Source: an uncultured Candidatus Saccharibacteria bacterium (lineage in GTDB: Bacteria > Patescibacteriota > Minisyncoccia > Phycocordibacterales > UBA10002). Taken from it: 38,982 bases of DNA. The stretch is taken from NCBI GenBank assembly GCA_964373775.1, contig CAYJWA010000002.1, positions 1 to 38,982 of the forward strand, given 5' to 3'. Within the stretch, counting starts at the first letter, position 1; each line of letters opens with the position of its first letter. This document shows, piece by piece, positions 1 through 38,982 of the stretch. The notes below the pieces were generated by a model. The model was not told the DNA's origin, made no database searches, and saw only the letters and a program-made list of their open reading frames with translations. The position numbers and the translations under genes were made by a program.

Positions 1-55
1 TACCAAAAGCGGTAGATACACTTGACGAATGGTGCACACGAATTTTAGGAAGGCG
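1..55. repeat. Terminal direct repeat. Nt 1-55 recur at 38928-38982 (54/55 identical) and belong to a 42-bp-period tandem repeat.
   Basis: Direct reading: taccaaaagcggtagatacacttgacgaatggtgcacRcgaattttaggaaggcg at both window ends. An extra partial unit lies at 38896-38927. Confidence 0.9.
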
Positions 56-212
56 TACACGAATGGGGGACACCCTGCGCTCCCTGCCCGTGCGTGTCCG
101 CACGCAGGCGGGCGCGCAGGGTCATTCGGGGCGGCCCGCAGGCAGGCGCCCTGCGGTGCCGCTCTCAATTTTTACTTTTCGCATACCCGCAGTGTATCAA
201 AAAGCGATTGAT

Positions 213-3515: not shown

Positions 3516-3588
3516 TCCGCCCAGTAGGATTCGAACCTACGACCCTCCGCTTAAGAGGCGGGTGCTCTACCAACTGAGCTATGGGCGG
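3516..3588 (-). tRNA. tRNA-Lys (anticodon CUU)
   Basis: Reverse complement CCGCCCATAGCTCAGTTGGTAGAGCACCCGCCTCTTAAGCGGAGGGTCGTAGGTTCGAATCCTACTGGGCGGA. Canonical D and T arms, anticodon loop CTCTTAA, and an unusual C1-G72 pair. Confidence 0.9.
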
Positions 3589-3696
3589 CTACATCATCCG
3601 CGGCGGATGATCGCCCGACCAAAACAAAGTTTTGGTTTAGGGTTTTCTGCTGCGAATAGGTTATAACACAAAAAGACCGAAAATTGAACCTGTGGA

Positions 3697-3723
3697 TTGC
3701 GGCCGCGACCGTTGTGCTATACT
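3697..3723 (+). promoter_or_regulatory. Possible rnpB promoter (TTGCGG-N15-TATACT)
   Basis: -10 TATACT at 3718-3723. The -35 is weak and the spacer is short. Confidence 0.35.
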
Positions 3724-3730
3724 TATCCGC

Positions 3731-4122
3731 AGCCCATTAGGAGTTAATTTCACCCACACACCTTGATGGAAAGTTCTGTGCCTCACGCGAGGTTAGGATT
3801 TTTTTAGCATTCACCACGAGTTTTAGTGAACAGGTCAAGGTGCCGGGGTTCACGACCATGTTGGGCGGACACTAATTCCAACAAAGAGACAGTTCGCTGT
3901 CTCTTTGTTGTTTTTGAGATATACATACCAATCCCAATAGTAGAGCGGAGCTCGCTACGGGACAGGTATACGAATCCGCCGCGGCGGACGAATCAACCTA
4001 TGTCCGACCGGGTCGAACAGGTCTAGGACGAATGGCTACGCATGATGCAGGCATAGGTAACTTCTGAGCGGTCGCACAGAAGTTGCATATATTAGATTTG
4101 TTTGAGATAACTCATTAGGGGG
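3731..4122 (+). ncRNA. rnpB: RNase P RNA (bacterial type A-like, divergent). Boundaries +/- 30 nt.
   Basis: Ordered matches to remembered M1 RNA motifs: GAUGGAAAGUUC (cf GAGGAAAGUCC), CAAGGUGCC, CACGACCA, CAACAAAGAGACA (cf CAACAGAGAGCA), CCCAAUAG, CUAGGACGAAUGGCU (cf CUAGAUGAAUGACU) and GCACAGAAGUU, which is complementary to AAGUUCUGUGC at 3771-3781 (P4-like). Ends CCC-AUUAG-GAGUUA / UAACUC-AUUAG-GGG can pair (P1/P2-like). Confidence 0.7.
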
Positions 4123-4166
4123 AACCGCACGGGTGAATTCTCCGCGGTGTCGCTCTCAAACTTTAC

Positions 4167-5378
4167 ATGGATGACATACAGCTTCCCGAGCCGCAGGCAA
4201 GACACGGGGAAACCGCGTGCCCGTATTGCGGGGACAGTCCAATCCGGCATTTTGAAACCTTTGTGAGCGAGAGCATAGCAAGCGCCGCGAACCAGTGGCT
4301 GTCGTTTCCGGGCATGCGCGCGCTCCACGGATTTGTGGACAGGGTCTCTCTCGGCTTTGCGCGGTTCTTTATTTTTCTGTTCCGCGCGATTGGCGCCGCT
4401 TCTTTTTCGCGCGACATTTTGCGCGCCAGGACTTTGCGCTCCGCGCTCATTTGGCGGGAAGCGCGCAGGCGCGGCATCGCGATGGAGCAATGTATTGCAT
4501 GGGGAAAGCCGACCGAGTGGTACCGCGCCCGACTTCGCGGGAGGTGGCGCTATTTTGAGAGCATTCCGCTTCCGCCTGCGCTTTCGCGCAGGGGGCACGA
4601 GTGGCTTGATGATAAGCACTTGGTTAAGGAGAAATTGCGACGGGCTGGGATTCCCGTTCCGCGCTCGGTTGTTGTAAAAAGCGCGCGCGCCGCCCGCGCC
4701 GCGTTTTTGCATCTTGGCGCGCCGGTTGTGGTAAAACCCTGCACGGGTTCGCGCGGCAGGCATACGACTGTTTTTGTGCCGGATGTTGCTTCATTAGAAA
4801 AAGCGTTTTGGCGTGCGCAAAGAATCAATCATTTTGTCGTCATTGAGGAGTATCTTTCGGGAAGCGTCTGCCGCGGAACCACTGTTGCCGGAGTGCTTCG
4901 CGGATTTCTGAAAGCCGACCCTCCGATTGTTGTGGGAGATGGGAAGCGCACCCTTGCGAAACTGATAGCGGAGAAAAACCGCACCCGTCCAAAGCGGGTT
5001 GCGGAGGTGCTTATCCGCCCGGAACTGACAGAGTTTGTGGCGAGGCAGGGATATGCGCTTTCTGCTGTGCTTCCACAAGGGCAGCGGTTGCCGCTTCTCT
5101 TTCGCACCGGACGGCTTTTTGGCGGCAGAACGCGTGAGATGCTTTCTGAAGTGCACCCCGAGTTTCGCGCCGCGCTCGAGAAGGCAGGGAGAGTCGCGGA
5201 TGCTCCCGTGGTCGGTTTTGATGTTATTATTCCTGACCCAACGCGCGCGCCCGCGGGACAGAAATGGGGAGTTATAGAGGGGAACAGTTTGCCTTTTATT
5301 GACCTGCACGATTTTTCGTTGGAAGGCGCGCCCGCCAATGTCGCCTCCCATATCTGGGATTTGTGGGAGCGGGGATGA
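4167..5378 (+). CDS. ATP-grasp protein resembling the N-terminal/ATP-grasp part of cyanophycin synthetase (CphA). No Mur-ligase-like domain.
   Basis: Motif order VVVKPCTGSRGRHTTV, VVIEEYLSG, PPIVVGDGKRTLAKLIAEKNRTRP, FRTGRLFGG, VHPEF, VGFDVIIPD and IEGNSLPFIDLH matches the remembered CphA ATP-grasp layout. N-terminus has CPYC and one hydrophobic helix. Confidence 0.7.
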   Translation: MDDIQLPEPQARHGETACPYCGDSPIRHFETFVSESIASAANQWLSFPGMRALHGFVDRVSLGFARFFIFLFRAIGAASFSRDILRARTLRSALIWREARRRGIAMEQCIAWGKPTEWYRARLRGRWRYFESIPLPPALSRRGHEWLDDKHLVKEKLRRAGIPVPRSVVVKSARAARAAFLHLGAPVVVKPCTGSRGRHTTVFVPDVASLEKAFWRAQRINHFVVIEEYLSGSVCRGTTVAGVLRGFLKADPPIVVGDGKRTLAKLIAEKNRTRPKRVAEVLIRPELTEFVARQGYALSAVLPQGQRLPLLFRTGRLFGGRTREMLSEVHPEFRAALEKAGRVADAPVVGFDVIIPDPTRAPAGQKWGVIEGNSLPFIDLHDFSLEGAPANVASHIWDLWERG

Positions 5379-5912: not shown

Positions 5913-5933
5913 ATCCACGGAACAGCACTGCTG

Positions 5934-5952
5934 TACAAGGTCCGACCTTGTA
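5934..5952. repeat. 19-bp palindrome family member (TACAAGGTCCGACCTTGTA)
   Basis: Perfect 9-bp arms, between convergent genes. Confidence 0.9.
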
Positions 5953-5988
5953 AGATGTCGGGGAACGGCTTAACGATGCCGTTTCTGG

Positions 5989-6009
5989 CTACAAGGTCCG
6001 ACCTCGTAG
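5989..6009. repeat. Palindrome family member (CTACAAGGTCCGACCTCGTAG)
   Basis: 10-bp arms with one mismatch, 37 nt after the previous copy. Confidence 0.85.
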
Positions 6010-6025: not shown

Positions 6026-6751
6026 TTATTTCGCGTCAGTTCCGTGTTTCCTGTACAGCGGATGCACCGGCACGGCGCGGATTGCGGTAATGACTTCTTC
6101 GTCGCTGTCCGTAATCGTATAGAGTCCGAGGTCTTTTTCGTCAACCGCGTGGTGAAGCAGGAGCATATTTTCCCGCATAAAGCTATTGAGCGGTTCCCAA
6201 AAGTCGCGCCCCACGAGAAAGATCGGCACCCGCCGTATTTTGTGCGTCTGTATGAGCGTGATGAGTTCAAAAAATTCATCAAGCGTGCCGAATCCTCCCG
6301 GAAAGAAAAGGTACGCCTCTGCGGCGAATGAGAGCGCGACTTTTCGCACGAAAAAATAATCAAATTCAACGCTTGCCGTTGTGTATTGGTTGAACTTTTG
6401 GCGTGTGGGAAGACGAATGTTGAGCCCCGCGGATTTGCCGCCTGCTTCAAACGCGCCTCGATTCGCTGCCTCCATAATGCCGGCGCTCCCGCCGGTGAGC
6501 ACTGTGTAGCCAAGTTCTTTTACAATCTTTCCCGCAAGCGCGCGCGCTTTGATATAGTGTTCGCTCTTCTCGGTGAAACGCGACGAGCCAAAAAAGGTGA
6601 CGGAGCGCGGAAATCTGCCGATAAATTCAAACGCTTCGGTGAATTCTTTGTCAATACGAGACACCCGCGCTTTGATTTCGCGCTGTATTTCTTCTTTGGT
6701 AAGAGCGTGTGAAAAGCGCTCGCTGTCGTTCTGATGTCGTGTTGGCGGCAT
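6026..6751 (-). CDS. LOG-family protein (TIGR00730 / lysine-decarboxylase-like; cytokinin riboside 5'-monophosphate phosphoribohydrolase family)
   Basis: VLTGGSAGIMEAANRGA and FFPGGFGTLDEFFE motifs with typical length. Confidence 0.85.
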   Translation of the reverse strand: MPPTRHQNDSERFSHALTKEEIQREIKARVSRIDKEFTEAFEFIGRFPRSVTFFGSSRFTEKSEHYIKARALAGKIVKELGYTVLTGGSAGIMEAANRGAFEAGGKSAGLNIRLPTRQKFNQYTTASVEFDYFFVRKVALSFAAEAYLFFPGGFGTLDEFFELITLIQTHKIRRVPIFLVGRDFWEPLNSFMRENMLLLHHAVDEKDLGLYTITDSDEEVITAIRAVPVHPLYRKHGTDAK

Positions 6752-6834
6752 GTTTGTTTTTCTATTATAGCGATGGGAACGGAAACGAGCAACTTTTTGT
6801 GTGCAAACTGCGCTTTTTTCTTTATACTGTTGCG

Positions 6835-8082
6835 GTGCGATTTCATATTGAAAAGAAAGTGAAAGGGCGAATGGGGCGCGCGGGTATTCTTGAAACCGCG
6901 CACGGCGCTATTCATACGCCGGCTTTTGTCGCGGTGGGGACCAAAGCAACCGTGAAAGCGGTTGCGCCTGATGCGCTTCGTGCCCTCGGTGCCGAAGTCG
7001 TGCTCGGAAATGCCTATCATCTGTATCTTGAGCCCGGGGAGAAAACAGTTGCGCGCGCCGGGGGTTTTGGAAAGTTTATGGGCTGGGACGGGCCCACCAT
7101 GACCGACTCAGGCGGTTTTCAGATATTCTCGCTCGGTGCGGGATTTGGGCGGCACACGGCCAAAATTAGACCACACCTGCACCATTCTAAACATCGGGTG
7201 TTCACCGAGGAGAGGTGTGGTGTAATTTTTGTGCAGATTGATGAAGACGGGGCAATATTCCGCTCGCACCGGGACGGGAGCAAGCATCGGTTTACACCGG
7301 AGCGTTCCATTGAGATTCAACACGCGCTCGGCGCCGACATCATCTTCGCGTTTGACGAGTGCACTTCGCCCGACGCTCCATATAAGTACCAGAAGCAGGC
7401 GATGGAGCGGACGCACCGGTGGGCCCTTCGTTCGCTAGAAGCGAACCGCCGATTAACGCGGATAAGAACGCGGATTGACGCGGATAAATCATATCAGCGC
7501 ACATCAGCGTTACATCAGCGTCCATCTGCGTTATTCGGAATTGTGCAAGGAGGCCGTCACGAAGATTTGAGAAAGCAGAGCGCACGGACAGTTGGCAAGA
7601 TGGATTTCGATGGCTTCGGCATCGGCGGCTCGTTTGGAAGAGAAGATATGGGGAACGCGGTGCGCTCCGTGAATGAAATCCTGCCGGAGGATAAACCACG
7701 GCACTTGCTCGGCATCGGCGGCATTGAAGATTTGTTTTCCGCCGTTGAAAACGGCTGCGACACCTTTGATTGCGTGTCTCCGACGCGCGAAGCGCGCACG
7801 GGTTCGCTGTATACGAAGCGGGGGAGAATAAACATTACCAATGCGCGTTTTCGGACAGAATTTACGCCCATTGATACCGCGTGCGAGTGTTATACATGCT
7901 GTAATTTTACCCGCGCGTATCTCGCACATCTCTTCCGTTCGCGGGAGATTCTCGCGTACTCGCTCGCCTCGGTCCACAATCTTTCGTTTTTCATCAATCT
8001 GGTGCAAAATATGCGACAGGCGATTTTGGGCGGTGTCTTCCACAAGTTTAGAAAAGAATTTTTGCTACACTATAAAAGTTGA
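6835..8082 (+). CDS. tgt: Queuine tRNA-ribosyltransferase
   Basis: (M)RFHIEKKVKGRMGRAGILETAHGAIHTPAFVAVGT aligns with the MKFEL...TPxFMPVGT N-terminus. Also GGFQIFSL, FAFDECT, and the zinc motif CECYTCCNFTRAYLAHL. GTG at 6835 fits orthologue N-termini; alternative ATG at 6871. A TATACT hexamer lies at 6823-6828. Confidence 0.9.
   Translation: MRFHIEKKVKGRMGRAGILETAHGAIHTPAFVAVGTKATVKAVAPDALRALGAEVVLGNAYHLYLEPGEKTVARAGGFGKFMGWDGPTMTDSGGFQIFSLGAGFGRHTAKIRPHLHHSKHRVFTEERCGVIFVQIDEDGAIFRSHRDGSKHRFTPERSIEIQHALGADIIFAFDECTSPDAPYKYQKQAMERTHRWALRSLEANRRLTRIRTRIDADKSYQRTSALHQRPSALFGIVQGGRHEDLRKQSARTVGKMDFDGFGIGGSFGREDMGNAVRSVNEILPEDKPRHLLGIGGIEDLFSAVENGCDTFDCVSPTREARTGSLYTKRGRINITNARFRTEFTPIDTACECYTCCNFTRAYLAHLFRSREILAYSLASVHNLSFFINLVQNMRQAILGGVFHKFRKEFLLHYKS
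7163..7228. repeat. 66-nt MITE-like element with 16-bp terminal inverted repeats, inserted in frame in tgt
   Basis: aaattagaccacacct ... aggtgtggtgtaattt (15/16 complementary). 22 codons with no stop. A related copy lies at 3158-3215. Confidence 0.8.
7452..7531. repeat. Low-complexity inverted repeat array inside tgt (3x ACGCGGATW, then 4x ATC(A/T)GCG)
   Basis: Direct reading. Encodes RLTRIRTRIDADKSYQRTSALHQRPSA. Confidence 0.75.
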
Positions 8083-9188: not shown

Positions 9189-9241
9189 GTGTGGACCGAG
9201 GGGGAGTCAAACCCCAAGAGCGGGCGGTCTCGTCAACCTTA
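9157..9241 (-). ncRNA. Candidate small RNA (~85 nt), family unknown
   Basis: Lies between the promoter at 9248-9275 and the terminator at 9157-9188. Predicted helices GACCG/CGGUC and GGGG-UUUGACU-CCCC. Confidence 0.45.
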
Positions 9242-9247
9242 TGGGGC

Positions 9248-9275
9248 AGTATAGCATTTACTTTGTCCGTGTCAA
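9248..9275 (-). promoter_or_regulatory. Near-consensus promoter TTGACA-N16-TATACT with a perfect DnaA-box 9-mer 6 nt upstream
   Basis: Minus strand reads ttatccaca actcgc ttgaca cggacaaagtaaatgc tatact. Confidence 0.65.
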
Positions 9276-9379
9276 GCGAGTTGTGGATAAGTACCATTCG
9301 CCCCGCCTCACTCAATCTCTCGGCTCTTTATACCATACGGCTTTGTAAGAGTCATCTTCTGCTATATAGTTTTCATGCA

Positions 9380-11677
9380 ATGCAAAAATTCCAGCTGAAA
9401 AGCAAGTTCAGACCCGCTGGTGACCAACCAAAAGCTATTAAGGCATTGGTGGAAGGATTCAAGCGCGGCGAGCGGTATCAAACGCTACTTGGCGTTACCG
9501 GAAGCGGGAAAACCTTCACAGCGGCCAATGTGATTGCGCAGATTCAAAGGCCAACACTGGTGATTGCGCACAATAAAACGCTCGCGGCACAACTTGCGCA
9601 GGAGTACAAAGAGTTTTTTCCGGATAACGCGGTGCATTATTTTGTTTCCTACTACGATTACTACCAGCCGGAGGCGTATCTGCCTATAACCGACACCTAT
9701 ATTGAGAAAGAAGCGCAGATCAACGAGGAGATTGACCGCCTTCGGCACGCGACGACACAGGCGCTTCTCTCGCGCCGAGATGTGATTGTAGTTGCGAGCG
9801 TCTCGTGTATGTATGGGTTGGGAAGTCCCGAGGAATATGAAAAAGTGAATATAAAATTGCAAAAAGGACAGCGCGTCTCTCGCGGCGATGTTTTGCGCGC
9901 GCTCATCGGCATACATTATATACGTACGAACGCAGACCTATCCCCCGGCGAGTGCCGCGCGCTCGGCAATGTGGTGGAGGTAATGCCTCAAAGTGAGCGG
10001 GAGATGTATCGTATTGAGATTAGTGACGAGCTCGTTCAGCGGATTCAAAAGATTGACCCGATTACGCGGAAACTTTTGGAAGAAATAGATGCGTTGTTTA
10101 TTTTTCCGGCAAAACATTTCATCACGCCGGAGGAGGACCGCGCGCGAGCGATTGAGACAATCAAGAGTGAGCTGAAAAACCAGTTGAAGAAATTTGAAAA
10201 AGAGGGGAAATTGCTTGAAGCCGAGCGGCTTAAACGTCGCACCAACTATGACCTCGCGATGATACGCGAAGTCGGCTATTGCAACGGGATTGAAAATTAC
10301 TCACGCCACTTTTCGGGGAAACTCCCCGGCGAACCGCCCGATACCTTGCTTTCATATTTTTCCGCATCTCCAAGGTTCGACCTTAAATCGGGAGAAAGGT
10401 CGAACCTTGGAGATAGTGCAGATTTTTTGACCATCATCGACGAATCTCATGTGACAATTCCACAGCTTCGCGGAATGTATGCGGGGGACAAATCGCGGAA
10501 AGATACGCTTGTCGAACACGGCTTCCGTCTTCCCTCGGCGCGTGACAATCGTCCGTTACAGTTCCACGAGTTTGAGGAGCGGGTAGGGCAAGTGATTTTT
10601 ACCTCGGCGACGCCCGGGCCGTATGAGTTCGAGAAGAGCGGCACAGCAGTTGTCGAGCAGGTCATTAGACCGACTGGATTGGTTGACCCGCAGGTTGAAA
10701 TACGACCGGTAAGCGAGAACTTTTATTCCTCCTTTCCTAAAGGAGGCGCCCCGAATCTTCGAGGGACGGAGGATTTTAAAATCCCTCCTCCGATGTCACA
10801 TCGGAGTGCTCCCTTTAAGAAAGGGAGAAGAGATCGGCAGGGCTACTGCGGACAGATTCAGGACTTTAAAAAATCTACAAGGTCGGACCTTGTAAAAAAA
10901 GAGGGTTATAAAACAGGTTCTTTCACCCGTCTACAAGGTCGGACCTTGTATGGAGGGCAGGTTAAGGATTTCATCGCGGAGGCAGAAAAAGATATCAAAG
11001 CCGGTGGGCGGGTCATTGCGACGACGCTTACGAAGAAAATGGCCGAGGACCTCGCGGCGTTTCTCAAGGAAAAGGGTATCAAAACCGAGTACCTGCACAG
11101 CGACATTTTGACACTGGAGCGGATTATGATTCTGACGCGGTTTCGCAAGGGTGAGTTTGATTGTCTGGTGGGGGTTAATCTTTTGCGCGAAGGGCTGGAC
11201 CTTCCCGAGGTTTCGCTTATCGGCATTTTGGACGCTGACCGCGAGGGGTTTTTGCGTTCGCAGACATCACTCATTCAGATTATTGGTCGCGCGGCGCGCA
11301 ATGTCGCGGGGCGGGTGATTTTGTATGCGGATGTTATTACCGGTTCAATAGAAAAAGCGATTGGCGAGACGAATCGGCGCCGCGCGCTTCAGCTCGCGCA
11401 TAACAAAAAACACGGCATCACGCCGAAAACAATTATCAAAAAAGTGCGTGATATCATCGAAGCCTTCTGCTTGGAGCACGAAAAGGCCGTCAGTCACCTT
11501 ATGGAGATAGACAAAGAAGCGCTGAAAAATAAGACACTCAACCAGTTGCTCAAAGAAAAGAAAGTCCAAATGAACGCGGCAGTCAAAATTCTTGATTTCG
11601 AGACGGCCGCATTGCTCCGCGACGAAATCCGCGAGTTGGAGAAGCTGACACTGCATCCACTTATAATGTATCGCTGA
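9380..11677 (+). CDS. uvrB: Excinuclease ABC subunit B, carrying two in-frame repeat insertions
   Basis: MQKFQLKSKFRPAGDQPKAI...GVTGSGKTF, DESHVT, TLTKKMAEDL, GRAARN and the C-terminal UVR domain. ATG at 9380 fits orthologue N-termini. Confidence 0.95.
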   Translation: MQKFQLKSKFRPAGDQPKAIKALVEGFKRGERYQTLLGVTGSGKTFTAANVIAQIQRPTLVIAHNKTLAAQLAQEYKEFFPDNAVHYFVSYYDYYQPEAYLPITDTYIEKEAQINEEIDRLRHATTQALLSRRDVIVVASVSCMYGLGSPEEYEKVNIKLQKGQRVSRGDVLRALIGIHYIRTNADLSPGECRALGNVVEVMPQSEREMYRIEISDELVQRIQKIDPITRKLLEEIDALFIFPAKHFITPEEDRARAIETIKSELKNQLKKFEKEGKLLEAERLKRRTNYDLAMIREVGYCNGIENYSRHFSGKLPGEPPDTLLSYFSASPRFDLKSGERSNLGDSADFLTIIDESHVTIPQLRGMYAGDKSRKDTLVEHGFRLPSARDNRPLQFHEFEERVGQVIFTSATPGPYEFEKSGTAVVEQVIRPTGLVDPQVEIRPVSENFYSSFPKGGAPNLRGTEDFKIPPPMSHRSAPFKKGRRDRQGYCGQIQDFKKSTRSDLVKKEGYKTGSFTRLQGRTLYGGQVKDFIAEAEKDIKAGGRVIATTLTKKMAEDLAAFLKEKGIKTEYLHSDILTLERIMILTRFRKGEFDCLVGVNLLREGLDLPEVSLIGILDADREGFLRSQTSLIQIIGRAARNVAGRVILYADVITGSIEKAIGETNRRRALQLAHNKKHGITPKTIIKKVRDIIEAFCLEHEKAVSHLMEIDKEALKNKTLNQLLKEKKVQMNAAVKILDFETAALLRDEIRELEKLTLHPLIMYR
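10367..10413. repeat. Perfect 17-bp-stem hairpin element inside uvrB
   Basis: tctccaaggttcgacct (10367-10383), 13-nt loop, aggtcgaaccttggaga (10397-10413). Confidence 0.9.
10712..10954. repeat. 243-nt composite of stacked palindromes inserted in frame in uvrB
   Basis: Hairpins at 10728-10746, 10768-10788, 10790-10804 and 10809-10827, plus 19-bp palindromes at 10876-10894 and 10932-10950. Confidence 0.85.
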
Positions 11678-14088: not shown

Positions 14089-14212
14089 TAGATTAATGTT
14101 GTAAGATTAAGCATAACACAGATTAAAGTTGTAAGATTTAAGTACGACAGTAGAACTCAAAGCCGGATTTCCCTACTTTAATCTTTAATCTTTAATCTGA
14201 AATCTTAAATCT
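14089..14212. repeat. Low-complexity palindromic spacer: 2x ~30-nt AGATTAAWGTTGTAAGATT units facing 4x CTTTAATCT-type units
   Basis: Direct reading. The right-hand units are the reverse complement of AGATTAAAG. Confidence 0.8.
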
Positions 14213-15043
14213 ATGAGCAAGATTCTCCTTATTGAAGACGATATATTTCTGGGAGATGTACTTATGGAAAAGCTCAAAGCCGCAGGCTACGAGGCGCGAC
14301 TTTCTCGCGACGGCGTTTCGGGACTGCGCGCCCTGCGCGAGTGGAAGCCGGATTTGCTTCTCCTGGACATTATTCTGCCGAATAAAAACGGGTATGAAGT
14401 GCTGGAGGAGAAACTTCGCGACAAAATGATTGCAAAGATTCCGGTTATTGTTATCTCTAATTCCGGCCAGCCTGTTGAAATCAACCGCGCCCTGGCGCTC
14501 GGAGTGAAGGATTATCTGGTAAAAGCTCAATTTGACCCCGAGGAAGTGCTTATCAAAGTGCGGCTGCAGCTCTCGGGAGGGGAGACGGCTCCCCGGTCTT
14601 CGCTTCCGGCGGCGCAGGCACAGAAAGGGGGAGAAAAGAACTCCGGCGCCGCTGCTTTGCAGGGGAGAAAGATCATGTGGGTGGAGGACGACAAATTCTT
14701 AAGCGACATCATTGCGCGAAAACTCTCCGCGCAAGGAAGCGTGTTAATTCACGCGAGCGACGGGGGCACGGCTCTGAAGATTCTTGAAAACGAGTCGCCG
14801 GATATCGTGCTTCTCGATATTCTACTTTCCGGCATTGACGGGTATGAGATTCTGAAACGGATGAAATCGGCTGAAAAGACGAAACATATCCCCGTCATTC
14901 TCCTTTCTAACCTGGGGCAGAAGAGCGATGTGGAAAAAGGGAAAGCGCTCGGCGCGGCGCGGTTTCTGATTAAAGCAACCGTTACCTTGGATGAGATTGT
15001 GGAGGAGATAAAAGCCGTTCTGAAAGAAGTAAGCAGTAAGTAG
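14213..15043 (+). CDS. Response regulator with two receiver (REC) domains and no output domain
   Basis: KILLIEDD...LLLLD...VKDYLVKA and KIMWVEDD...IVLLD...FLIKA, joined by a Pro/Ala/Gly linker. Confidence 0.9.
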   Translation: MSKILLIEDDIFLGDVLMEKLKAAGYEARLSRDGVSGLRALREWKPDLLLLDIILPNKNGYEVLEEKLRDKMIAKIPVIVISNSGQPVEINRALALGVKDYLVKAQFDPEEVLIKVRLQLSGGETAPRSSLPAAQAQKGGEKNSGAAALQGRKIMWVEDDKFLSDIIARKLSAQGSVLIHASDGGTALKILENESPDIVLLDILLSGIDGYEILKRMKSAEKTKHIPVILLSNLGQKSDVEKGKALGAARFLIKATVTLDEIVEEIKAVLKEVSSK

Positions 15044-15065
15044 TAAGTAGATAGTAGGGAGAGAA

Positions 15066-15169: not shown

Positions 15170-15212
15170 CGGTTAAACCTAAAACCTAAATCCATTTAGG
15201 TAGGTTTAACCG
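15170..15212. repeat. Imperfect palindrome built from AAACCTA heptamers in the uvrA 5' UTR
   Basis: cggttaaacctaaaacctaaat cc atttaggtaggtttaaccg, ending 16 nt before the ATG. Confidence 0.75.
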
Positions 15213-15227
15213 ACAGGCAACAAAAGC

Positions 15228-17882
15228 ATGCAGCATCAAGGCGATAAAATCATTGTTAAGGGAGCACGGACACATAACCTTAAGAACATCACGGTTGAGA
15301 TGCCGCGCAATAAACTGATTGTATTCACCGGGCTTTCCGGAAGCGGGAAGTCGTCTTTGGCGTTTGATACGATCTTTGCGGAAGGTCAGCGCCGCTATGT
15401 GGAGTCGCTCTCTGCCTACGCGCGGCAGTTCCTGCGGCAGATGCAGAAGCCGGATGTGGACGAGATTATCGGACTCTCGCCGGCCATTTCCATTGACCAA
15501 AAGAGCCGTTCCAACAACCCGCGTTCAACGGTTGCGACCATTACCGAAATTTACGATTATCTGCGCGTCTTGTTTGCGCGCGTCGGGAAACCGCACTGTC
15601 TTCTCTGCGGGCGAGAAATCAAAAAGCTCTCCAACGAAGAAATTAAAGACACCATTTTGGAAGCGGTTGCGCGCGTGCGGAAAAGCGCTGCCGGGCCGAG
15701 GGTTCTTGGCGTCGCCGTGAGCAACGCGAAGCTCAAACTCTACGCGCCCATCGTCGTCGGGCGCAAGGGCGAGTACTACCAGTTGCTCTACGACTTGCTA
15801 GGAAAGGGGTACGCAGCGGTGAAGGTGGACGGTGTTGAGAAAAAACTGCGCGAGCCGATTGTCTTGGAGAAAAACAAGAAGCACGACATTGATGTGTTGG
15901 TAGACGAATTCTTTCTGTCGGAGCTCGCTAGGGGGAGCGACGCGACGAGGGAGCGTCTGCCGGAGGCAATTGAGCGCGCGCTCCACGAATCGGGCGGGCT
16001 CGTGCGCGTAGAAACATCTGCCGAGAGCAAGATTATTTCCGCCAAGTTTATGTGCCCCTACGACGGCTTTTCGTACCCAGAGGTGGAGCCGCGGCTCTTC
16101 TCTTTCAACTCGCCGTACGGCGCGTGTCCGGAATGCAACGGCCTCGGCACGCGGCATTTCTTCGGAGACGAGCCATGCCCGAAATGCAAAGGCGCGCGGC
16201 TGCGCGATGAATCTCTCCATGTCGTGCTCGGAAGCACGACCGCGGACAAGCGCGGACTGGACGCAGACCTACGCGGAAGGGGAAGCGGCGTAAACATTGT
16301 GCAGTTATCGGCCATGTCCATTGCGGATGCATACGACTTTTTCGTGGAGCTGAAGCTCTCGCCGAAGGAGCGGGAAATTGCCAAAGTCGTGCTCCGCGAG
16401 ATTGAGTCGCGACTGCAGTTTATGATTGATGTGGGTATTGAGTACCTCACACTTGACCGGCGGGCGCATACGCTCTCGGGCGGCGAGGCGCAGAGGATTC
16501 GGCTTGCCTCCCAACTGGGGAGCGGGCTCGTGGGCGCCCTGTATGTGCTTGACGAGCCGACCATCGGACTCCACGCGCGAGATAACGCGCGACTCTTGAA
16601 GACCCTTCTGCACCTGCGGGATATCGGGAACACGATTATTGTAGTGGAACATGATGAGGAAACGATTCTTTCCGCGGATTATTTGGTGGATATCGGTCCC
16701 GGAGCCGGCGTGCATGGCGGATACATTGTCGTTGACGGCGATTTGCAAAAGCTGTTGTCGGCAAAGACGAATGCAAGCAAGTCGCTGACACTTTCGTATC
16801 TGCGCGGCGAGGTGGAGATTGAAGTTCCGGAAACGCGCCGCACGCGAGACAAAGGCGCGCTCAAAATCCGCGGCGCAAAGATCTTCAACATACAAAATGT
16901 TTCGGTGGATGTGCCGCTTGGAAAACTGACGGTGATTACCGGCGTATCCGGTTCCGGCAAGTCCTCGTTTCTGTATGAGATTCTGCACAAAAATCTTCAG
17001 GCGCGGTTTGACCGCAGGTACCGAAGCGCTGAAACCTTTCACTGCAGCTCATTTACCGGTACTGAATACCTTTCACGCGCCATTCTCATAGACCAGTCCC
17101 CGATTGGGCGCACGCCACGCTCCAATCCTGCGACCTACACCGGAGCGTGGACATTCATTCGTGGGCTTTTTGCCGAAACTGAGGAGGCGCGCGTGCGCGG
17201 CTGGAGTCCGAGCCGCTTTTCGTTCAATGTGCCCACCGCAGGCGGGTCCGCCTCGGGCGGAAAAGGGGGTAGATGCGAAGCGTGCCAAGGGAACGGCGAG
17301 ATAGCCGTGGAGATGCACTTTCTCCCGACCGTCTATGTCACCTGTGATGTCTGCAATGGCAAGCGATTTATGAAAGAAACGTTGGAGGTGAGGTATAAGA
17401 AAAAAAGCGCCTACGACATACTTCAGATGACGATTGAGGAGTGTCTTGAATTCTTTGAGGATATCCCCGCGGTAGCCGATCGTTTAAAAACTTTAAACGA
17501 TGTAGGCCTAGGGTATCTAGAGTTGGGCCAATCCGCGACGACCCTCTCCGGCGGGGAGGCCCAACGGGTGAAAATATCCTCGGAACTCTATCGTACGCAT
17601 GTCCAAAAGACCATCTATCTTCTGGACGAGCCGACCGTGGGTCTCCACTACGAAGATGTAAAAAAGCTCATTGAGATTCTTCAGAAACTGGTGGACCACG
17701 GAAATACGGTCGTGGTCATTGAGCACAACATGGATGTGATTAAAAGTTCGGACTATGTTATTGACTTCGGGCCGGATGGCGGCGACGGGGGAGGGCAGAT
17801 TATCGCGAAGGGAACGCCGGAAGAAGTTGCAAGCCATAAGAAATCGTACACGGGGGAGTATTTGCGAAAGGCGCTTGGGTAG
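15228..17882 (+). CDS. uvrA: Excinuclease ABC subunit A
   Basis: [34 protein letters not shown], two ABC modules and zinc-finger cysteines. Confidence 0.95.
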
Positions 17883-17960
17883 ATTTAGGATTTATGATTT
17901 AAGATGTAAGAAAAAAACCAGCCGTTCATACCGACACGACTGGCATGGTTCCCTGGACGG

Positions 17961-18385: not shown

Positions 18386-19858
18386 ATGAATAGTCAAGCG
18401 TTTCCCAAGAGGCGAAGGATTTCAAAATCCCTCCCCCCACCGGGTACTCCCTTTAGAAAAGGGAGAATACCCGATACCCCCGGGGTGTATTTCTTTCTTG
18501 GGCGACCGCGAAGCGGTTTAGCCCGAGGGTCTCTACACCCTAAACCCGCAAGGGCGGGTCGGGTTTTGTATATCGGGCGCGCCGCCTCGCTCCGCAATCG
18601 CGTGCGAAGCTATTTCGCACCTGACATCGCGGAGAAGCGAAGCTCGTGGATTGCGAAGATGCTTACCGAGGCGAAGAGTATTAATTTCCGGAAAACCGAT
18701 TCAGTGCTTGAGGCAATTCTCCTTGAGGCATACCTTATCAAAAAACTTCAGCCGCCATACAATACGGAACAGAAAGACGACAAGAGCTTCAACTGCATCG
18801 TCATCACCGACGAGTCGTTTCCCGCGCTTATGGTCGCGCGTCAAAAGAACATAGACTTTTCCTCGGTAAGGATTAAGCCTGCCCGCCGAAACCTCGGCGC
18901 AGGCGGGGATGAAGGATTAAAGATTCGCGCCGTGTACGGTCCTTTCCCGCACGGTGAGGAACTTCAGACCGCGCTTAAAATCATCCGTAAGATTTTTCCC
19001 TTTCGCGACGATACATGTACGCCGTGCCCCCAAAGTATCAGAGGACATTCCAACATTCTCAAGAATGTTGGAATGTTGTGTCGCCCGTGCTTTAACAGGC
19101 AGATAGGACTTTGCCCGGGGGTCTGCACCGGCGAGATACGCGAGCGGGAGTACGCAAAAACAATTCGGAATATCCGGCTCTTTTTTGAGGGGAAAAAACC
19201 GCGACTGCTGAAACTGCTCAAATCAGAAATGAATGCCGCGGCAAAAGCGCAGGAATTTGAAAAAGCTAGCGTAGTTAAAAAAACCATCTTTGCTCTCCAG
19301 CACATCCAAGAGGTCGCCCTCCTCAAAACTTTTAACTTTACACTTTCAACTTTTAACTTCAGGATTGAGGCCTACGACCTCTCGCATTTCGGCGGAAAAG
19401 AAATAGTCGGCGCAATGGCGGTAGTTCTAAACGGCGTCGCGCAAAAAAGCGAGTATCGCCTGTTCAAACTGCGCGGCATCAGGTCGCAAAATGAAGTTGC
19501 CGGTTTGCAGGAAATTATCCGCCGCCGCTTGAATCATCCGGAATGGCTGTTTCCAGATTTGATTGTCGTTGACGGAAACGAGGTCCAGAAAAATGCGGCT
19601 GAAAAGATTCTGAAAGAATGGGGAAGAGTGATTCCGGTTGCCGCGGTCGTGAAAGACGAGCGCCATCGCCCGCGGGAAATTCTTAACAAGATGCTTGCTG
19701 TCGGGCAACCCTCCTACATTCCGAGGAATGTAGGAATATGGAGCGAACAGCAAGAATTACATGCGGCGATTCTTCTGGCGAACAGCGAGGCGCACCGATT
19801 CGTTCTGAAGTTCCAGCGCAGGCAGCGGCTGGTTAAACGAACCGCTGTGAAAAACTGA
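18386..19858 (+). CDS. uvrC: Excinuclease ABC subunit C. Short form with no C-terminal (HhH)2 domain and several in-frame hairpin insertions.
   Basis: GIY-YIG (PGVYFF...VLYIGRA...RNRVRSYF), UVR domain (EFEKASVVKKTIFALQ), endonuclease domain (IEAYDLSHFGG). Ends ~15 aa after SEAHRF. Confidence 0.9.
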   Translation: MNSQAFPKRRRISKSLPPPGTPFRKGRIPDTPGVYFFLGRPRSGLARGSLHPKPARAGRVLYIGRAASLRNRVRSYFAPDIAEKRSSWIAKMLTEAKSINFRKTDSVLEAILLEAYLIKKLQPPYNTEQKDDKSFNCIVITDESFPALMVARQKNIDFSSVRIKPARRNLGAGGDEGLKIRAVYGPFPHGEELQTALKIIRKIFPFRDDTCTPCPQSIRGHSNILKNVGMLCRPCFNRQIGLCPGVCTGEIREREYAKTIRNIRLFFEGKKPRLLKLLKSEMNAAAKAQEFEKASVVKKTIFALQHIQEVALLKTFNFTLSTFNFRIEAYDLSHFGGKEIVGAMAVVLNGVAQKSEYRLFKLRGIRSQNEVAGLQEIIRRRLNHPEWLFPDLIVVDGNEVQKNAAEKILKEWGRVIPVAAVVKDERHRPREILNKMLAVGQPSYIPRNVGIWSEQQELHAAILLANSEAHRFVLKFQRRQRLVKRTAVKN

Positions 19859-20076: not shown

Positions 20077-20266
20077 AAAGCACGAAACACTTTCTTAAAA
20101 CACAAAGCACAGTATCCAAAGAACCAAACAGACTTCACAAAACACAATACATCCACCATTCGGGGGATCTCCCGAAGTGAGACAAAAATCCAAACGAAAA
20201 GGCAAGTTTGTGTTTTGAGTAGTTTGAAGTTTTGTTTGGAAACCGTGCGGTCTGTGTTTTGGAAAG
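20077..20266 (+). repeat. Long structured palindromic element, copy 2 (upstream of rpoB)
   Basis: Core acaaaacacaatacatccaccattcgggggatctcccgaagtgagacaaaaa. The 3' end gtgcggtctgtgttttggaaag is shared with copy 3. Confidence 0.85.
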
Positions 20267-23569: not shown

Positions 23570-23726
23570 GCACAAGCACGAAACAATCTTCTTACAACAC
23601 AAAACACAGTGTCTCCACCCTTCGGGGGATCTCCCGAAGGGAGACAAAAACCCAACGGGGAAATGAGTTTGTGTTTTGAAAAGATTGTGTTTTGTCTGGA
23701 CTTTGTGCGGTCTGTGTTTTGGAAAG
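23570..23726 (+). repeat. Long structured palindromic element, copy 3 (rpoB-rpoC intercistronic)
   Basis: Core acaaaacacagtgtctccacccttcgggggatctcccgaagggagacaaaaa. Starts 3 nt after the rpoB stop. Confidence 0.85.
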
Positions 23727-28880: not shown

Positions 28881-28985
28881 GCAGAACAGGGAACAGGGAA
28901 CAGGGAACAGGGAACATGAAATATGGAATATGAAATATGAAATAGGGAACAGGGAACATGAAATATGGAACATGAAATATGAAAT
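28881..28985. repeat. Heptamer microsatellite array (15 units of AGGGAAC / ATGAAAT / ATGGAAY), including a 2x 42-nt tandem duplication
   Basis: Direct reading. The 42-nt units lie at 28902-28943 and 28944-28985. Confidence 0.9.
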
Positions 28986-36692: not shown

Positions 36693-36741
36693 GAGAAGCG
36701 GTTAGTCCGCCATCTGGCGGATAGCGGTTAGCGTTTAGCAA

Positions 36742-36774
36742 GCAAAATCCTCTGCATGAGGCAGAGGATTTTGC
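36742..36774 (+). terminator. Intrinsic terminator after the giant gene
   Basis: 14-bp stem gcaaaatcctctgc / gcagaggattttgc, loop atgag, T-rich tail. Flanked by inverted CTAAACG-type repeats. Confidence 0.8.
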
Positions 36775-36828
36775 GATTCTTGTCTTTTCTTACTAAACGC
36801 TATACGCTAACCACTAAACGCTTCCCCC

Positions 36829-37575
36829 ATGACTTTCCACATCATCACTCTCTTCCCCCGCGCCTTTGACTCTTACCTCGGAGAGTCCATCTTACAGCGC
36901 GCCATTCTGGACAAGAAAATCAAGGTGAAGTTTTACAACCCGCGCGACTTCGCCGAAGACAAACACAGACGCATAGATCGCGCGCCGTACGGAGGCGGGC
37001 CCGGGATGGTGATTCAAGCGGAACCGGTACTCAAAGCAGTAGAAACTGCTTTGAGAGATTTAAGATTTAAGATTTATGATTTAAGAAAGAAGAAGCTAAA
37101 CACTAAACGCTCTACGCTAAACGTTTTTCCCAAAATCATCTGGCTATCGCCAAGCGGAAAGCAATTTACGAATGAGACCGGTATAAAATTCGCGCAATGC
37201 AGCGACCTTATCATCATCTGCGGGCGGTACGAGGGGATAGACGCGCGCGTGAAAAAAGTTCTACAAGACACGGCACGAATCCGCCGCGGCGGACGAATAA
37301 AATTGGAAGAGATATCAGTTGGACCGTTTGTGCTGACCGGCGGGGAACTGCCCGCAATGCTTCTGATTGATGTAATATCTCGACAGGTAGAAGGAGTGCT
37401 CGGCGACCCTCGCTCGCGCGAGGAGTCGCGAGTCGCAAGTCCGGAAGTGTACACCCGCCCGGAGGTTTTTCTGTATCGCGGAAAGAAATATCGCGTCCCC
37501 AAAATCCTCCTCTCCGGCCACCACCGGAAAATCGACGAGTGGCGACAAAGAAAAAGGAATTTTACGAGCATCTGA
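36829..37575 (+). CDS. trmD: tRNA (guanine37-N1)-methyltransferase, with two in-frame repeat insertions
   Basis: ITLFPRAF, DRAPYGGGPGMV, CGRYEGIDARV, LTGGELPAM and RPEV...VPKILLSGHH. Confidence 0.95.
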   Translation: MTFHIITLFPRAFDSYLGESILQRAILDKKIKVKFYNPRDFAEDKHRRIDRAPYGGGPGMVIQAEPVLKAVETALRDLRFKIYDLRKKKLNTKRSTLNVFPKIIWLSPSGKQFTNETGIKFAQCSDLIIICGRYEGIDARVKKVLQDTARIRRGGRIKLEEISVGPFVLTGGELPAMLLIDVISRQVEGVLGDPRSREESRVASPEVYTRPEVFLYRGKKYRVPKILLSGHHRKIDEWRQRKRNFTSI

Positions 37576-38763: not shown

Positions 38764-38807
38764 GCAATACGAATTACGAATAGAATACGAAATACGAATG
38801 GGAGAAC
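38764..38807. repeat. ACGAAT(W) heptamer microsatellite forming the MFS 5' UTR
   Basis: caatacgaattacgaatagaatacgaaatacgaatggg read directly. Confidence 0.85.
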
Positions 38808-38822: not shown

Positions 38823-38895
38823 TGGCGACAGAAATCTTTGCTGTGTGCGGATGGACGGGCCCGTTCGTTCATAGCAGATACGTTTAACGAATAGA

Positions 38896-38982
38896 GGTAG
38901 ATACACTTGACGAATGGTGCACACGAATACCAAAAGCGGTAGATACACTTGACGAATGGTGCACGCGAATTTTAGGAAGGCG
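38896..38982. repeat. 42-bp-period tandem repeat at the window end (about 2 units), continuous with nt 1-55
   Basis: ggtagatacacttgacgaatggtgcacacgaa at 38896-38927, then taccaaaagc + the same core at 38928-38969. Confidence 0.9.

Follow-up and report, generated by a model that had tools for sequence, protein, structure and literature searches.

The DNA analysed here (contig CAYJWA010000002.1, 38,982 nt, hereafter the window) was found to carry a 24-nt palindromic cassette, ACGAATCCGCCGCGGCGGACGAAT, at two sites, one of them inside trmD. The window is part of the chromosome of a Candidatus Taylorbacteria-like bacterium (Parcubacteria, Candidate Phyla Radiation (CPR)), and its genes included tgt, uvrB, uvrA, uvrC, rpoB, rpoC, mreB, trmD and those for a 2493-aa surface protein and a major facilitator superfamily (MFS) transporter. 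The trmD product contained the PF01746 domain and the motifs of the S-adenosylmethionine (SAM)-binding knot, GRYEGID and VLTGGE; its best homologs were 64-79% identical, the named ones being from Taylorbacteria or Parcubacteria, and its PDB matches had E values of about 1e-41. The 24-mer belongs to a short repeat of which letter-identical copies occur in uncultivated bacteria from many phyla. In trmD, this copied unit entered an older array of RCGAAT words in a permissive loop of the protein, between words that appear to have been there already, and the reading frame was kept. The features of the window are collected in Table 1.

Table 1. Positions of the cassette copies, trmD and associated repeats in the window
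Feature	Coordinates	Strand	Remarks
Cassette copy 2, ACGAAT-CCGCCGCGGCGG-ACGAAT	37275-37298	+	in frame in trmD
Cassette copy 1, identical 24-mer, intergenic	3970-3993	+	loop of possible local hairpin 3960-4005
trmD, tRNA m1G37 methyltransferase, 248 aa, two lineage-variable insert sites	36829-37575	+	PF01746, homologs, PDB matches
TrmD insert site 1: AGATTTA x4 (37056-37086), then CTAAACG-like x4 (37094-37123)	37056-37123	+	translated DLRFKIYDLRKKKLNTKRSTLN
ACGAAT words (25, 38, 59), then GC-rich long-hairpin repeat of about 120 nt (57-176)	1-176	+	homologous to elements in L082, L052
Hairpin ATCATCCGCgGCGGATGAT	3593-3611	.	4 nt upstream of tRNA-Lys
Motif TCCGCGGTGTCGCTCTCAAACTTTAC, abutting the ATP-grasp ATG	4141-4166	+	26 nt recurring at 150-175, L082, L052
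TACGAAT word array	38764-38807	+	directly upstream of minus-strand MFS gene start (38763)
Terminal 42-nt tandem repeat with ACGAAT words	38886-38982	+	38928-38982 98% identical to 1-55

Two copies of the cassette in the window

The sequence-only reading of this DNA had reported the same 24-mer at both sites, and we found the two copies to be exact and on the plus strand. No third copy was present in the window at up to three mismatches, and the number of copies expected in a shuffled window was zero. As described before, the 24-mer consisted of a perfect 12-nt GC palindrome, CCGCCGCGGCGG, which extends to 14 nt when the T and A next to it are counted and gives a 5-7 bp hairpin, with a direct ACGAAT repeat on each side. 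A comparison of the repeat families of the window revealed that the similarity between the two sites stopped at 24-27 nt. The two copies belong to one repeat family that is found in a protein-coding gene and in non-coding DNA, as had been proposed. Upon RNA folding, the 24-mer alone formed only a 5-bp hairpin with a CGCG loop (about -8 kcal/mol), which was not better than shuffled sequences, and nothing beyond this hairpin was found for the trmD copy. The window copies preceded CAACCT and AAAATT and did not show the GC hairpin with a U tract of an intrinsic terminator; a terminator scan called neither of them.

In trmD, the cassette was translated in frame as A149-R-I-R-R-G-G-R-I157 (peptide ARIRRGGRI), and the open reading frame (ORF) was intact. 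Alignment with a solved TrmD structure (PDB 4mcb) revealed a gap of 11-12 residues exactly at the cassette, between GRYEGID and S(I/V)G..VLTGGE, which confirmed the expansion of about 12 residues before SVGPFVLTGGE that the sequence-only reading had noted. A second break of about 18 residues was located after residue 74. When 34 Taylorbacteria-type TrmDs were aligned, both insert sites were hypervariable. The basal form of site 2, where the cassette lies, was RVKKA-FKVEE, and about half of the relatives carried 8-40 extra residues rich in R-I or R-M at this position. The trmD DNA of seven Taylorbacteria relatives showed that these inserts were arrays of one to four RCGAAT words; in locus L070, for example, the insert read ATGCGAAT CAACGAAT TCATGCGAAT GCCGCGAAT. 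The palindrome was present in none of the seven. The comparison with relatives that the sequence-only reading had proposed thus found trmD genes lacking the palindrome; what that reading had missed is that the loop already holds an RCGAAT-word array. The 3' junction of the trmD site, ACGAATAAAAtTGGA, was common to the window, L067 and L069. Because this junction is shared with relatives and none of them has the palindrome, the palindrome is younger than the word array. With the closest relative, trmD could be aligned in two ways, as a gain of 18 nt (the palindrome plus one word) or as the replacement of a spacer that adds 9 nt. MAFFT preferred the 9-nt version, with ACAAAT-GCC-ACGAAT in the closest relative versus ACGAAT-CCGCCGCGGCGG-ACGAAT in the window. 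The AlphaFold model of TrmD was poor (mean predicted local distance difference test score 62), and its least confident stretches included both insert sites (80-98 and 152-154); the model is too poor to place the insert and is only weakly informative about the two sites.

At site 1 of the window's trmD, TAA was avoided by TAT, and the heptamers of this site were also found in the intergenic arrays 17881-17911 and 36793-36822. In the window and in relatives L066-L072, site 1 was made of heptanucleotide tandem repeats that were read in all three frames. The unit varied by species (AGATTTA, CTAAACG, CTACACG, CTAAAAA or CTAAAAG), and potential stop codons were mutated. In L066, hairpins encoding ...LDSRLRGNDK were present in place of the heptamers.

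Copy 1 lay between genes, with the start of an ATP-grasp gene (4167) 174 nt downstream. The sequence-only reading had placed it at the tip of a helix in rnpB and had concluded that one element family targets structural-RNA genes as well as protein-coding ones. An Rfam scan of the window at the gathering score returned two tRNAs only and no RNase P RNA, and RNase P covariance models run on 3580-4200 gave no match even at E<=10. The RNase P motif GAGGAAAGTCCGGGC was absent from the window, and the conserved P4/CR-I motif GAGGAAAGUCCGGGC had a single site with three mismatches at 4425-4439 on the minus strand, inside the ATP-grasp ORF and at chance level. Rfam scans of the copy-1 region, the window start and 20 related loci returned tRNAs only, with no family on the cassette. 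In addition, a strong intrinsic terminator just upstream of copy 1 (3879-3920) splits the region. What speaks for rnpB is a loose by-eye resemblance at GGAAAGTTCTG (about 3767) and ACAGAAGTTGC (about 4068). An interruption of an RNase P RNA gene by copy 1 is contradicted by the missing covariance-model match and the missing conserved motif, and we regard it as highly improbable; since there is no rnpB here, the targeting of structural-RNA genes has no basis at this locus. Copy 1 formed the tip of a possible local helix, GGGACAGG/CCUAUGUCC, which was not better than shuffled sequences (z = -1.2).

The surroundings of copy 1 held further repeats. The 26-nt motif that abuts the ATP-grasp start codon ends a GC-rich long hairpin of about 120 nt at 150-175, in L082 and in L052, and the copy-1 surroundings are linked to this long-hairpin repeat family because the same motif ends that repeat elsewhere. 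In both L082 and L052, the long hairpin was preceded by ACGAAT-palindrome-ACGAA(T), with the palindrome as the spacer between two words; at the window's own site (38-64), the same two words were separated by TTTAGGAAGGCGTAC and not by the palindrome. The long hairpins (57-176 in the window, 1584-1703 on the minus strand of L082 and about 1499-1700 on the minus strand of L052) had variable insertions at their tips and ended in CCTGCGGTGTCGCTCTCAAACTTTAC, and no Rfam match was found for the element. In L082, it was followed by a terminator-like hairpin and may be a small RNA or another repeat. A looser relative of the cassette had been suggested upstream of tRNA-Lys; the hairpin itself is there, but it has no more than the TCCGC..GCGGA core in common with the cassette, and kinship is unproven. 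Between this hairpin and copy 1, an unannotated plus-strand stretch of about 250 nt (3640-3920) ended in the terminator mentioned above, which has a 14-bp stem. The stretch contained no ORF and gave no Rfam match, and it is possibly an unknown small RNA.

The cassette and its words in other genomes

The flanking word was itself a repeat of the window. ACGAAT was the most over-represented hexamer, with 32 occurrences on the plus strand and 4 on the minus strand versus 7-14 expected, and its presence as the unit of the microsatellite at 38764-38807 and within the terminal tandem repeat was confirmed. The two contig ends matched over 55 nt with one mismatch (1-55 and 38928-38982), within the 42-nt tandem repeat. 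A dispersed repeat is probably where the contig broke; a true 39-kb circle is unlikely because of the housekeeping gene content.

We searched GTDB contigs, with one genome per species, for the 21-nt core GAATCCGCCGCGGCGGACGAA, which requires only GAAT...ACGAA at the flanks. The core matched 65 loci, where fewer than about one would be expected from size alone by our estimate, and the 24-mer is not peculiar to this genome. About eight of these matches were judged to be chance coding in GC-rich genomes (L017, L031, L041, L047, L048, L058, L065), and the remainder lay in repeat contexts. The repeat family proposed by the sequence-only reading crosses phyla, which that reading had missed. The core occurred in five species of Dehalococcoidia (16 copies in S34_266 and 4 in the chromosome-titled record OZ219949), one Bacteroidaceae metagenome-assembled genome (MAG; 7 copies), the Patescibacteria genome H51-bin152_1 (3 copies) and Elusimicrobia (2 copies, L032 and L056). 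Single loci were found in Moranbacteria, Gracilibacteria, Saccharibacteria, Omnitrophica and Planctomycetota, and single copies in several species of Acidobacteriota. Several of the core-bearing genomes had a GC content of only 36-47%, at which chance matches are negligible. The full 24-mer was the commonest form, with 31 of 76 core occurrences, and exact copies were found in 11 more metagenome contigs, each of them CPR-like and with a GC content of 42-51%. No match was found in 2.9 million viral contigs, and among plasmids and phages of cultured hosts the cassette was absent, with only chance partial matches in GC-rich DNA. Other copies that appeared to lie in coding sequence were examined and set aside, as their long open frames were spurious GC-rich frames or the matches were chance coding.

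Nearly always, the cassette is located between two RCGAAT words. The words are arranged in arrays whose period is commonly 10 bp and which may or may not contain the palindrome; words without it were far more numerous than words with it. In CPR-like contigs, the words were abundant and often separated by 4-nt spacers, which gives the 10-bp period (ACGAAT GGCT ACGAAT; GCGAAT GCCT GCGAAT). The position and orientation of the cassette were variable there: upstream of TATAAT-ATG (L015, L082), directly past stop codons, and sense or antisense to the next gene. In Dehalococcoidia, the spacers between genes carried inverted arms with three words each, CACGAATnnnCACGAATnnnCACTAAT ... ATTAGTGnnnATTCGTGnnnATTCGTG. 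In some of these spacers, one arm had the palindrome in place of the 3-4-nt spacer that follows its first word, with no change in the word count, as evident from the arm pair CACGAATggaCACGAAT versus CACGAAT[pal]ACGAAT. The palindrome-bearing arm adjoined the ribosome-binding site of the downstream gene. In Acidobacteria, the core was found at the tip of larger hairpins, and its flanks were not direct repeats (aGAAT...cGAAa).

Several of the Dehalococcoidia spacers (L061 2512-2661 and 3517-3663, L059 749-894, L035 1454-1601) had arms like those of REPINs, made of three CACGAAT/CACTAAT words in 10-bp phase, and the outer ends of these arms, TTATCCACGAAT, were close to the DnaA box. In the Bacteroidaceae MAG (L037 about 4400-4520; L002, L007, L013, L003), palindromes were interleaved with AAATACG/AAATCAG heptamer arrays. 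This MAG also held other heptamer arrays (TAACCGT and others), a combination that the window shows as well.

Possible routes of spread

Our tentative preference, held at a little under even chance, is that the 24-mer is a dispersed, probably selfish, palindromic cassette that is copied between RCGAAT-word arrays. Within a genome, the palindrome would spread by short-homology copying: the strand under synthesis would change templates at one RCGAAT word, replicate the palindrome and return at the next word, and short-patch conversion of an equivalent kind would lead to the same product. New lineages would be reached through the horizontal transfer of DNA that carries the palindrome. The recipient in trmD would have been the older RCGAAT-word array in the hypervariable loop between GRYEGID and SVGPFVLTGGE, the event would have added 9 nt by a spacer swap or 18 nt as the palindrome and one word with the frame kept, and the resulting Arg/Gly-rich peptide IRRGGR would be tolerated by selection. 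This tolerance is attributed to the hypervariable loop that the array occupies, and we consider the element in trmD to be most likely selfish or neutral. The genome tolerates such inserts, as shown by other hairpin repeats that interrupt uvrB in frame. In support of the copying proposal, the flanks of each window copy were contiguous with their own locus, and the arms of the copy-1 hairpin paired with each other. What is observed is that the copies are identical, how the family is distributed, the word context, the lack of the cassette in the trmD of relatives and the intact ORF; how the cassette is copied, its horizontal spread and its neutrality are what we infer from these patterns.

The sequence-only reading had offered two explanations for the direct ACGAAT flanks, a target-site duplication or a microsatellite-primed insertion. 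The flanks are probably not a target-site duplication: the Dehalococcoidia arms with and without the palindrome had equal word counts, and two-word sites with other spacers exist (ACGAAT-TTTAGGAAGGCGTAC-ACGAAT in the window and ACAAAT-GCC-ACGAAT in the closest TrmD). From the equal counts and these other spacers, the words appear to pre-exist and the palindrome to replace a short spacer. The second explanation came close to the data, with flanks tied to ACGAAT repeats elsewhere in the window. Copy-choice is preferred over transposition because the number of words stays the same, sites exist in which two words enclose a different spacer, and no target-site duplication is evident in Acidobacteria.

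Several observations weigh against the copying proposal. Six bases of homology are very short for conversion, and among about 80 copies the trmD copy alone lies in real coding sequence. The closest TrmD is only 79% identical, which leaves the insertion boundaries ambiguous between 9 and 18 nt. In Dehalococcoidia, the cassette keeps one orientation and a constant position, 15-35 nt before start codons, and looks functional or targeted; two orthologous sites in this group were uninformative about conservation, as their flanks were 86-91% identical. Finally, copy-choice alone does not explain exact identity across phyla, which selection for function could.

Such selection is the core of an alternative that we consider rather unlikely, in which the RCGAAT arrays are promoter parts or sites bound by a conserved DNA-binding protein, the palindrome is an operator or a hairpin of the 5' untranslated region, and the trmD copy may be a by-product or an internal regulatory site. 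It draws on at least 14 Dehalococcoidia loci in which the cassette has a single orientation and precedes the ribosome-binding site and ATG by 15-35 nt, on its position 15-25 nt upstream of the TATAAT box that precedes ATG in L015 and L082, on the common 10-bp phasing of the words and on the letter-perfect 24-mer across phyla. However, orientation and position vary in CPR contigs (after stops, sense or antisense) and at copy 1 of the window, one copy lies inside an essential coding sequence, no Rfam family was found and the hairpin folds were not better than shuffled sequences. Near-perfect identity of many copies is also more typical of recent copying than of operator sites. A miniature transposable element seems still less probable and is an unlikely source in our view. 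Its unit would be 18 nt (the palindrome and ACGAAT) or 12 nt with a 6-bp target-site duplication, moved to ACGAAT targets by a trans-acting enzyme, which could be a single-strand transposase of the HUH/Y1 type that recognizes the hairpin and an adjacent motif, or a DDE enzyme for which the RCGAAT words are subterminal sites. The direct ACGAAT flanks at both window copies and 31 other loci agree with this, as do L069, which is readable as a single-word empty site, the cassettes in the loops of larger hairpins in Acidobacteria and at copy 1, the strand bias of ACGAAT (32 versus 4) and the inverted Dehalococcoidia arrays, whose three 10-bp-phased words per arm resemble transposase-binding ends. 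Yet the equal word number in arms with and without the palindrome speaks against a duplication, the acidobacterial copies lack matching direct repeats, no linked transposase was found in the loci examined and no copies occurred among the viral contigs, plasmids and phages. To our knowledge, a transposon of 12-18 nt also has no precedent.

Two further accounts were considered. If the palindrome had arisen anew at every site, through slippage of CCG/CGG and the correction of quasi-palindromes between adjacent words and with no copying from site to site, this would suit a core that reads (CCG)2(CGG)2 and the TrmD site AAT-GCCGCG-AAT of the relatives, which shares GCCGCG with the palindrome. Such an origin is implausible when the identical 24-mer stands at both window sites and in more than 40 loci elsewhere, AT-rich genomes included, and we give it very little weight. 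An assembly chimera or sequencing artefact joined at the shared 24-mer could be suspected from the contig ends, which lie in repeats and match each other (1-55 and 38928-38982). It is hardly credible, since trmD is colinear with its homologs on both sides of the cassette, the copy-1 flanks pair with each other, and the same cassette is found in long contigs and a chromosome-titled record from different projects.

Other repeats of the window and comparison with known systems

Hairpin repeats were also found in other genes of the window. Compared with a solved UvrB structure (2fdc), uvrB (9191-11677) contained two in-frame inserts, at 10365-10420 and 10715-10955. The former added 18 aa, for which a perfect inverted repeat of 19 bp codes (ATCTCCAAGGTTCGACCTT/AAGGTCGAACCTTGGAGAT); the latter added 81 aa and was a chain of short hairpins that included TCTACAAGGTCGGACCTTGTA twice. 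A family of 21-nt palindromes, TACAAGGTC(G/C)GACCTTGTA, was located at 628-648, 5932-5952, 5988-6008, 10874-10894 and 10930-10950, and it is a second repeat family common to coding and non-coding DNA. A pair of these palindromes with 56-nt spacing occurred both between the DUF456 and LOG genes and inside uvrB. Perfect hairpins with stems of 8-15 bp were present within the coding sequences of uvrC (18447-18465, 19045-19076, 19712-19735) and uvrA (17479-17501), and one of them, CTCCCTTTagaAAAGGGAG, resembled one of those in the uvrB insert. Within tgt (6709-8082), the segment 7447-7533 held tandem repeats whose periods were 10-12 and 21; its 457-aa product was longer than the 357-position Pfam TGT profile and was matched by it in two stretches. 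Tandem heptamer arrays with differing units occupied the intergenic spacers at 14176-14212, 15024-15057, 15175-15190, 17881-17911, 28884-28985, 36717-36822 and 38766-38799; several of them were directly upstream of start codons, and one further array (19327-19359) was inside uvrC. Additionally, a conserved leader of about 130 nt with a CCCTTCGGGgatctCCCGAAGGG hairpin preceded orf601, rpoB and rpoC (1145-1275, 20136-20266, 23598-23726).

A wider interpretation, which is possible although we would not count on it, is that the RCGAAT-word arrays and the invariant ACGAAT-CCGCCGCGGCGG-ACGAAT form an undescribed system shared horizontally by CPR, Dehalococcoidia, Elusimicrobia, Bacteroidota and Acidobacteriota. 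It would be either a mobile cassette smaller than any other known, with a recognition protein dedicated to it, or a portable promoter/operator module, and in either form it would invade the loops of essential proteins. If so, an extremely small palindromic cassette would be letter-identical in distant, mostly uncultivated phyla, which would point to frequent horizontal spread of non-coding DNA or to conserved recognition machinery that has not been described. Essential conserved CPR enzymes (TrmD, UvrB) absorb repeats of intergenic type in their loops, which bears on the origin of many lineage-specific inserts in CPR proteins, on gene calling and protein annotation in MAGs and on the insertion tolerance of the knotted SAM-binding fold of TrmD. 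We found no description of the 24-mer cassette in the literature, and searches on the palindrome, the words, LDSRLRGNDK-type peptides and palindromic inserts in Patescibacteria returned nothing relevant beyond work on Rickettsia palindromic elements (RPEs) and on MITEs (miniature inverted-repeat transposable elements).

Among known systems, cyanobacterial genomes contain HIP1, a very short iterated GC palindrome, together with the tandem heptanucleotide arrays called STRR. The window likewise holds a short palindrome and heptamer arrays, although the sequences and taxa are different, and HIP1 has 8 bp and is found throughout coding DNA. Repeats of the REP/BIME/REPIN type (repetitive extragenic palindromes, mobilized by RAYT, a Y1 HUH enzyme) are similar in being short GC-rich hairpins with many copies that are mostly extragenic, and the inverted doublets of Dehalococcoidia resemble REPINs. 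In contrast, the cassette lacks the 5' GTAG/GTGG head and has (A)CGAAT on both sides; REPs are species-specific, whereas the cassette is the same in many phyla and has one intragenic copy. No RAYT gene was identified in the 39-kb window and the 8-kb loci. Bacterial MITEs (Correia, Nezha, Chunjie) are also non-autonomous and intergenic with inverted termini, and they have occasionally been inserted in frame (review PMC10969869). They are 50-500 bp in length with a target-site duplication and a related insertion sequence (IS). The cassette is smaller and shows no clear target-site duplication; its direct repeats appear to be pre-existing, and no parent IS element was found in the loci examined. 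An IS beside trmD in L066 was considered as a parent and rejected, as its ends were unrelated and without RCGAAT words. Quasi-palindrome or template-switch mutagenesis copies a hairpin-forming segment through short flanking homology, as the mechanism proposed here would, but it is known as a local mutational process and not as a spreader of a dispersed family.

RPEs are inserted in frame at permissive sites of conserved protein-coding genes, and the ORF is not destroyed (for context, e.g. PMC1779305 and PMC10969869). The cassette shares with them a dispersed palindromic repeat that is intergenic as well as in frame in a conserved gene, with the ORF kept. RPEs, however, are about 100-150 bp and are found in Rickettsia only, whereas the cassette has 12-24 nt, resides in a CPR host within RCGAAT-word arrays and is identical across phyla, with only one coding insertion found. 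The cassette therefore behaves like RPEs but is not a member of this group, being five times smaller, from another phylum and spread across phyla.

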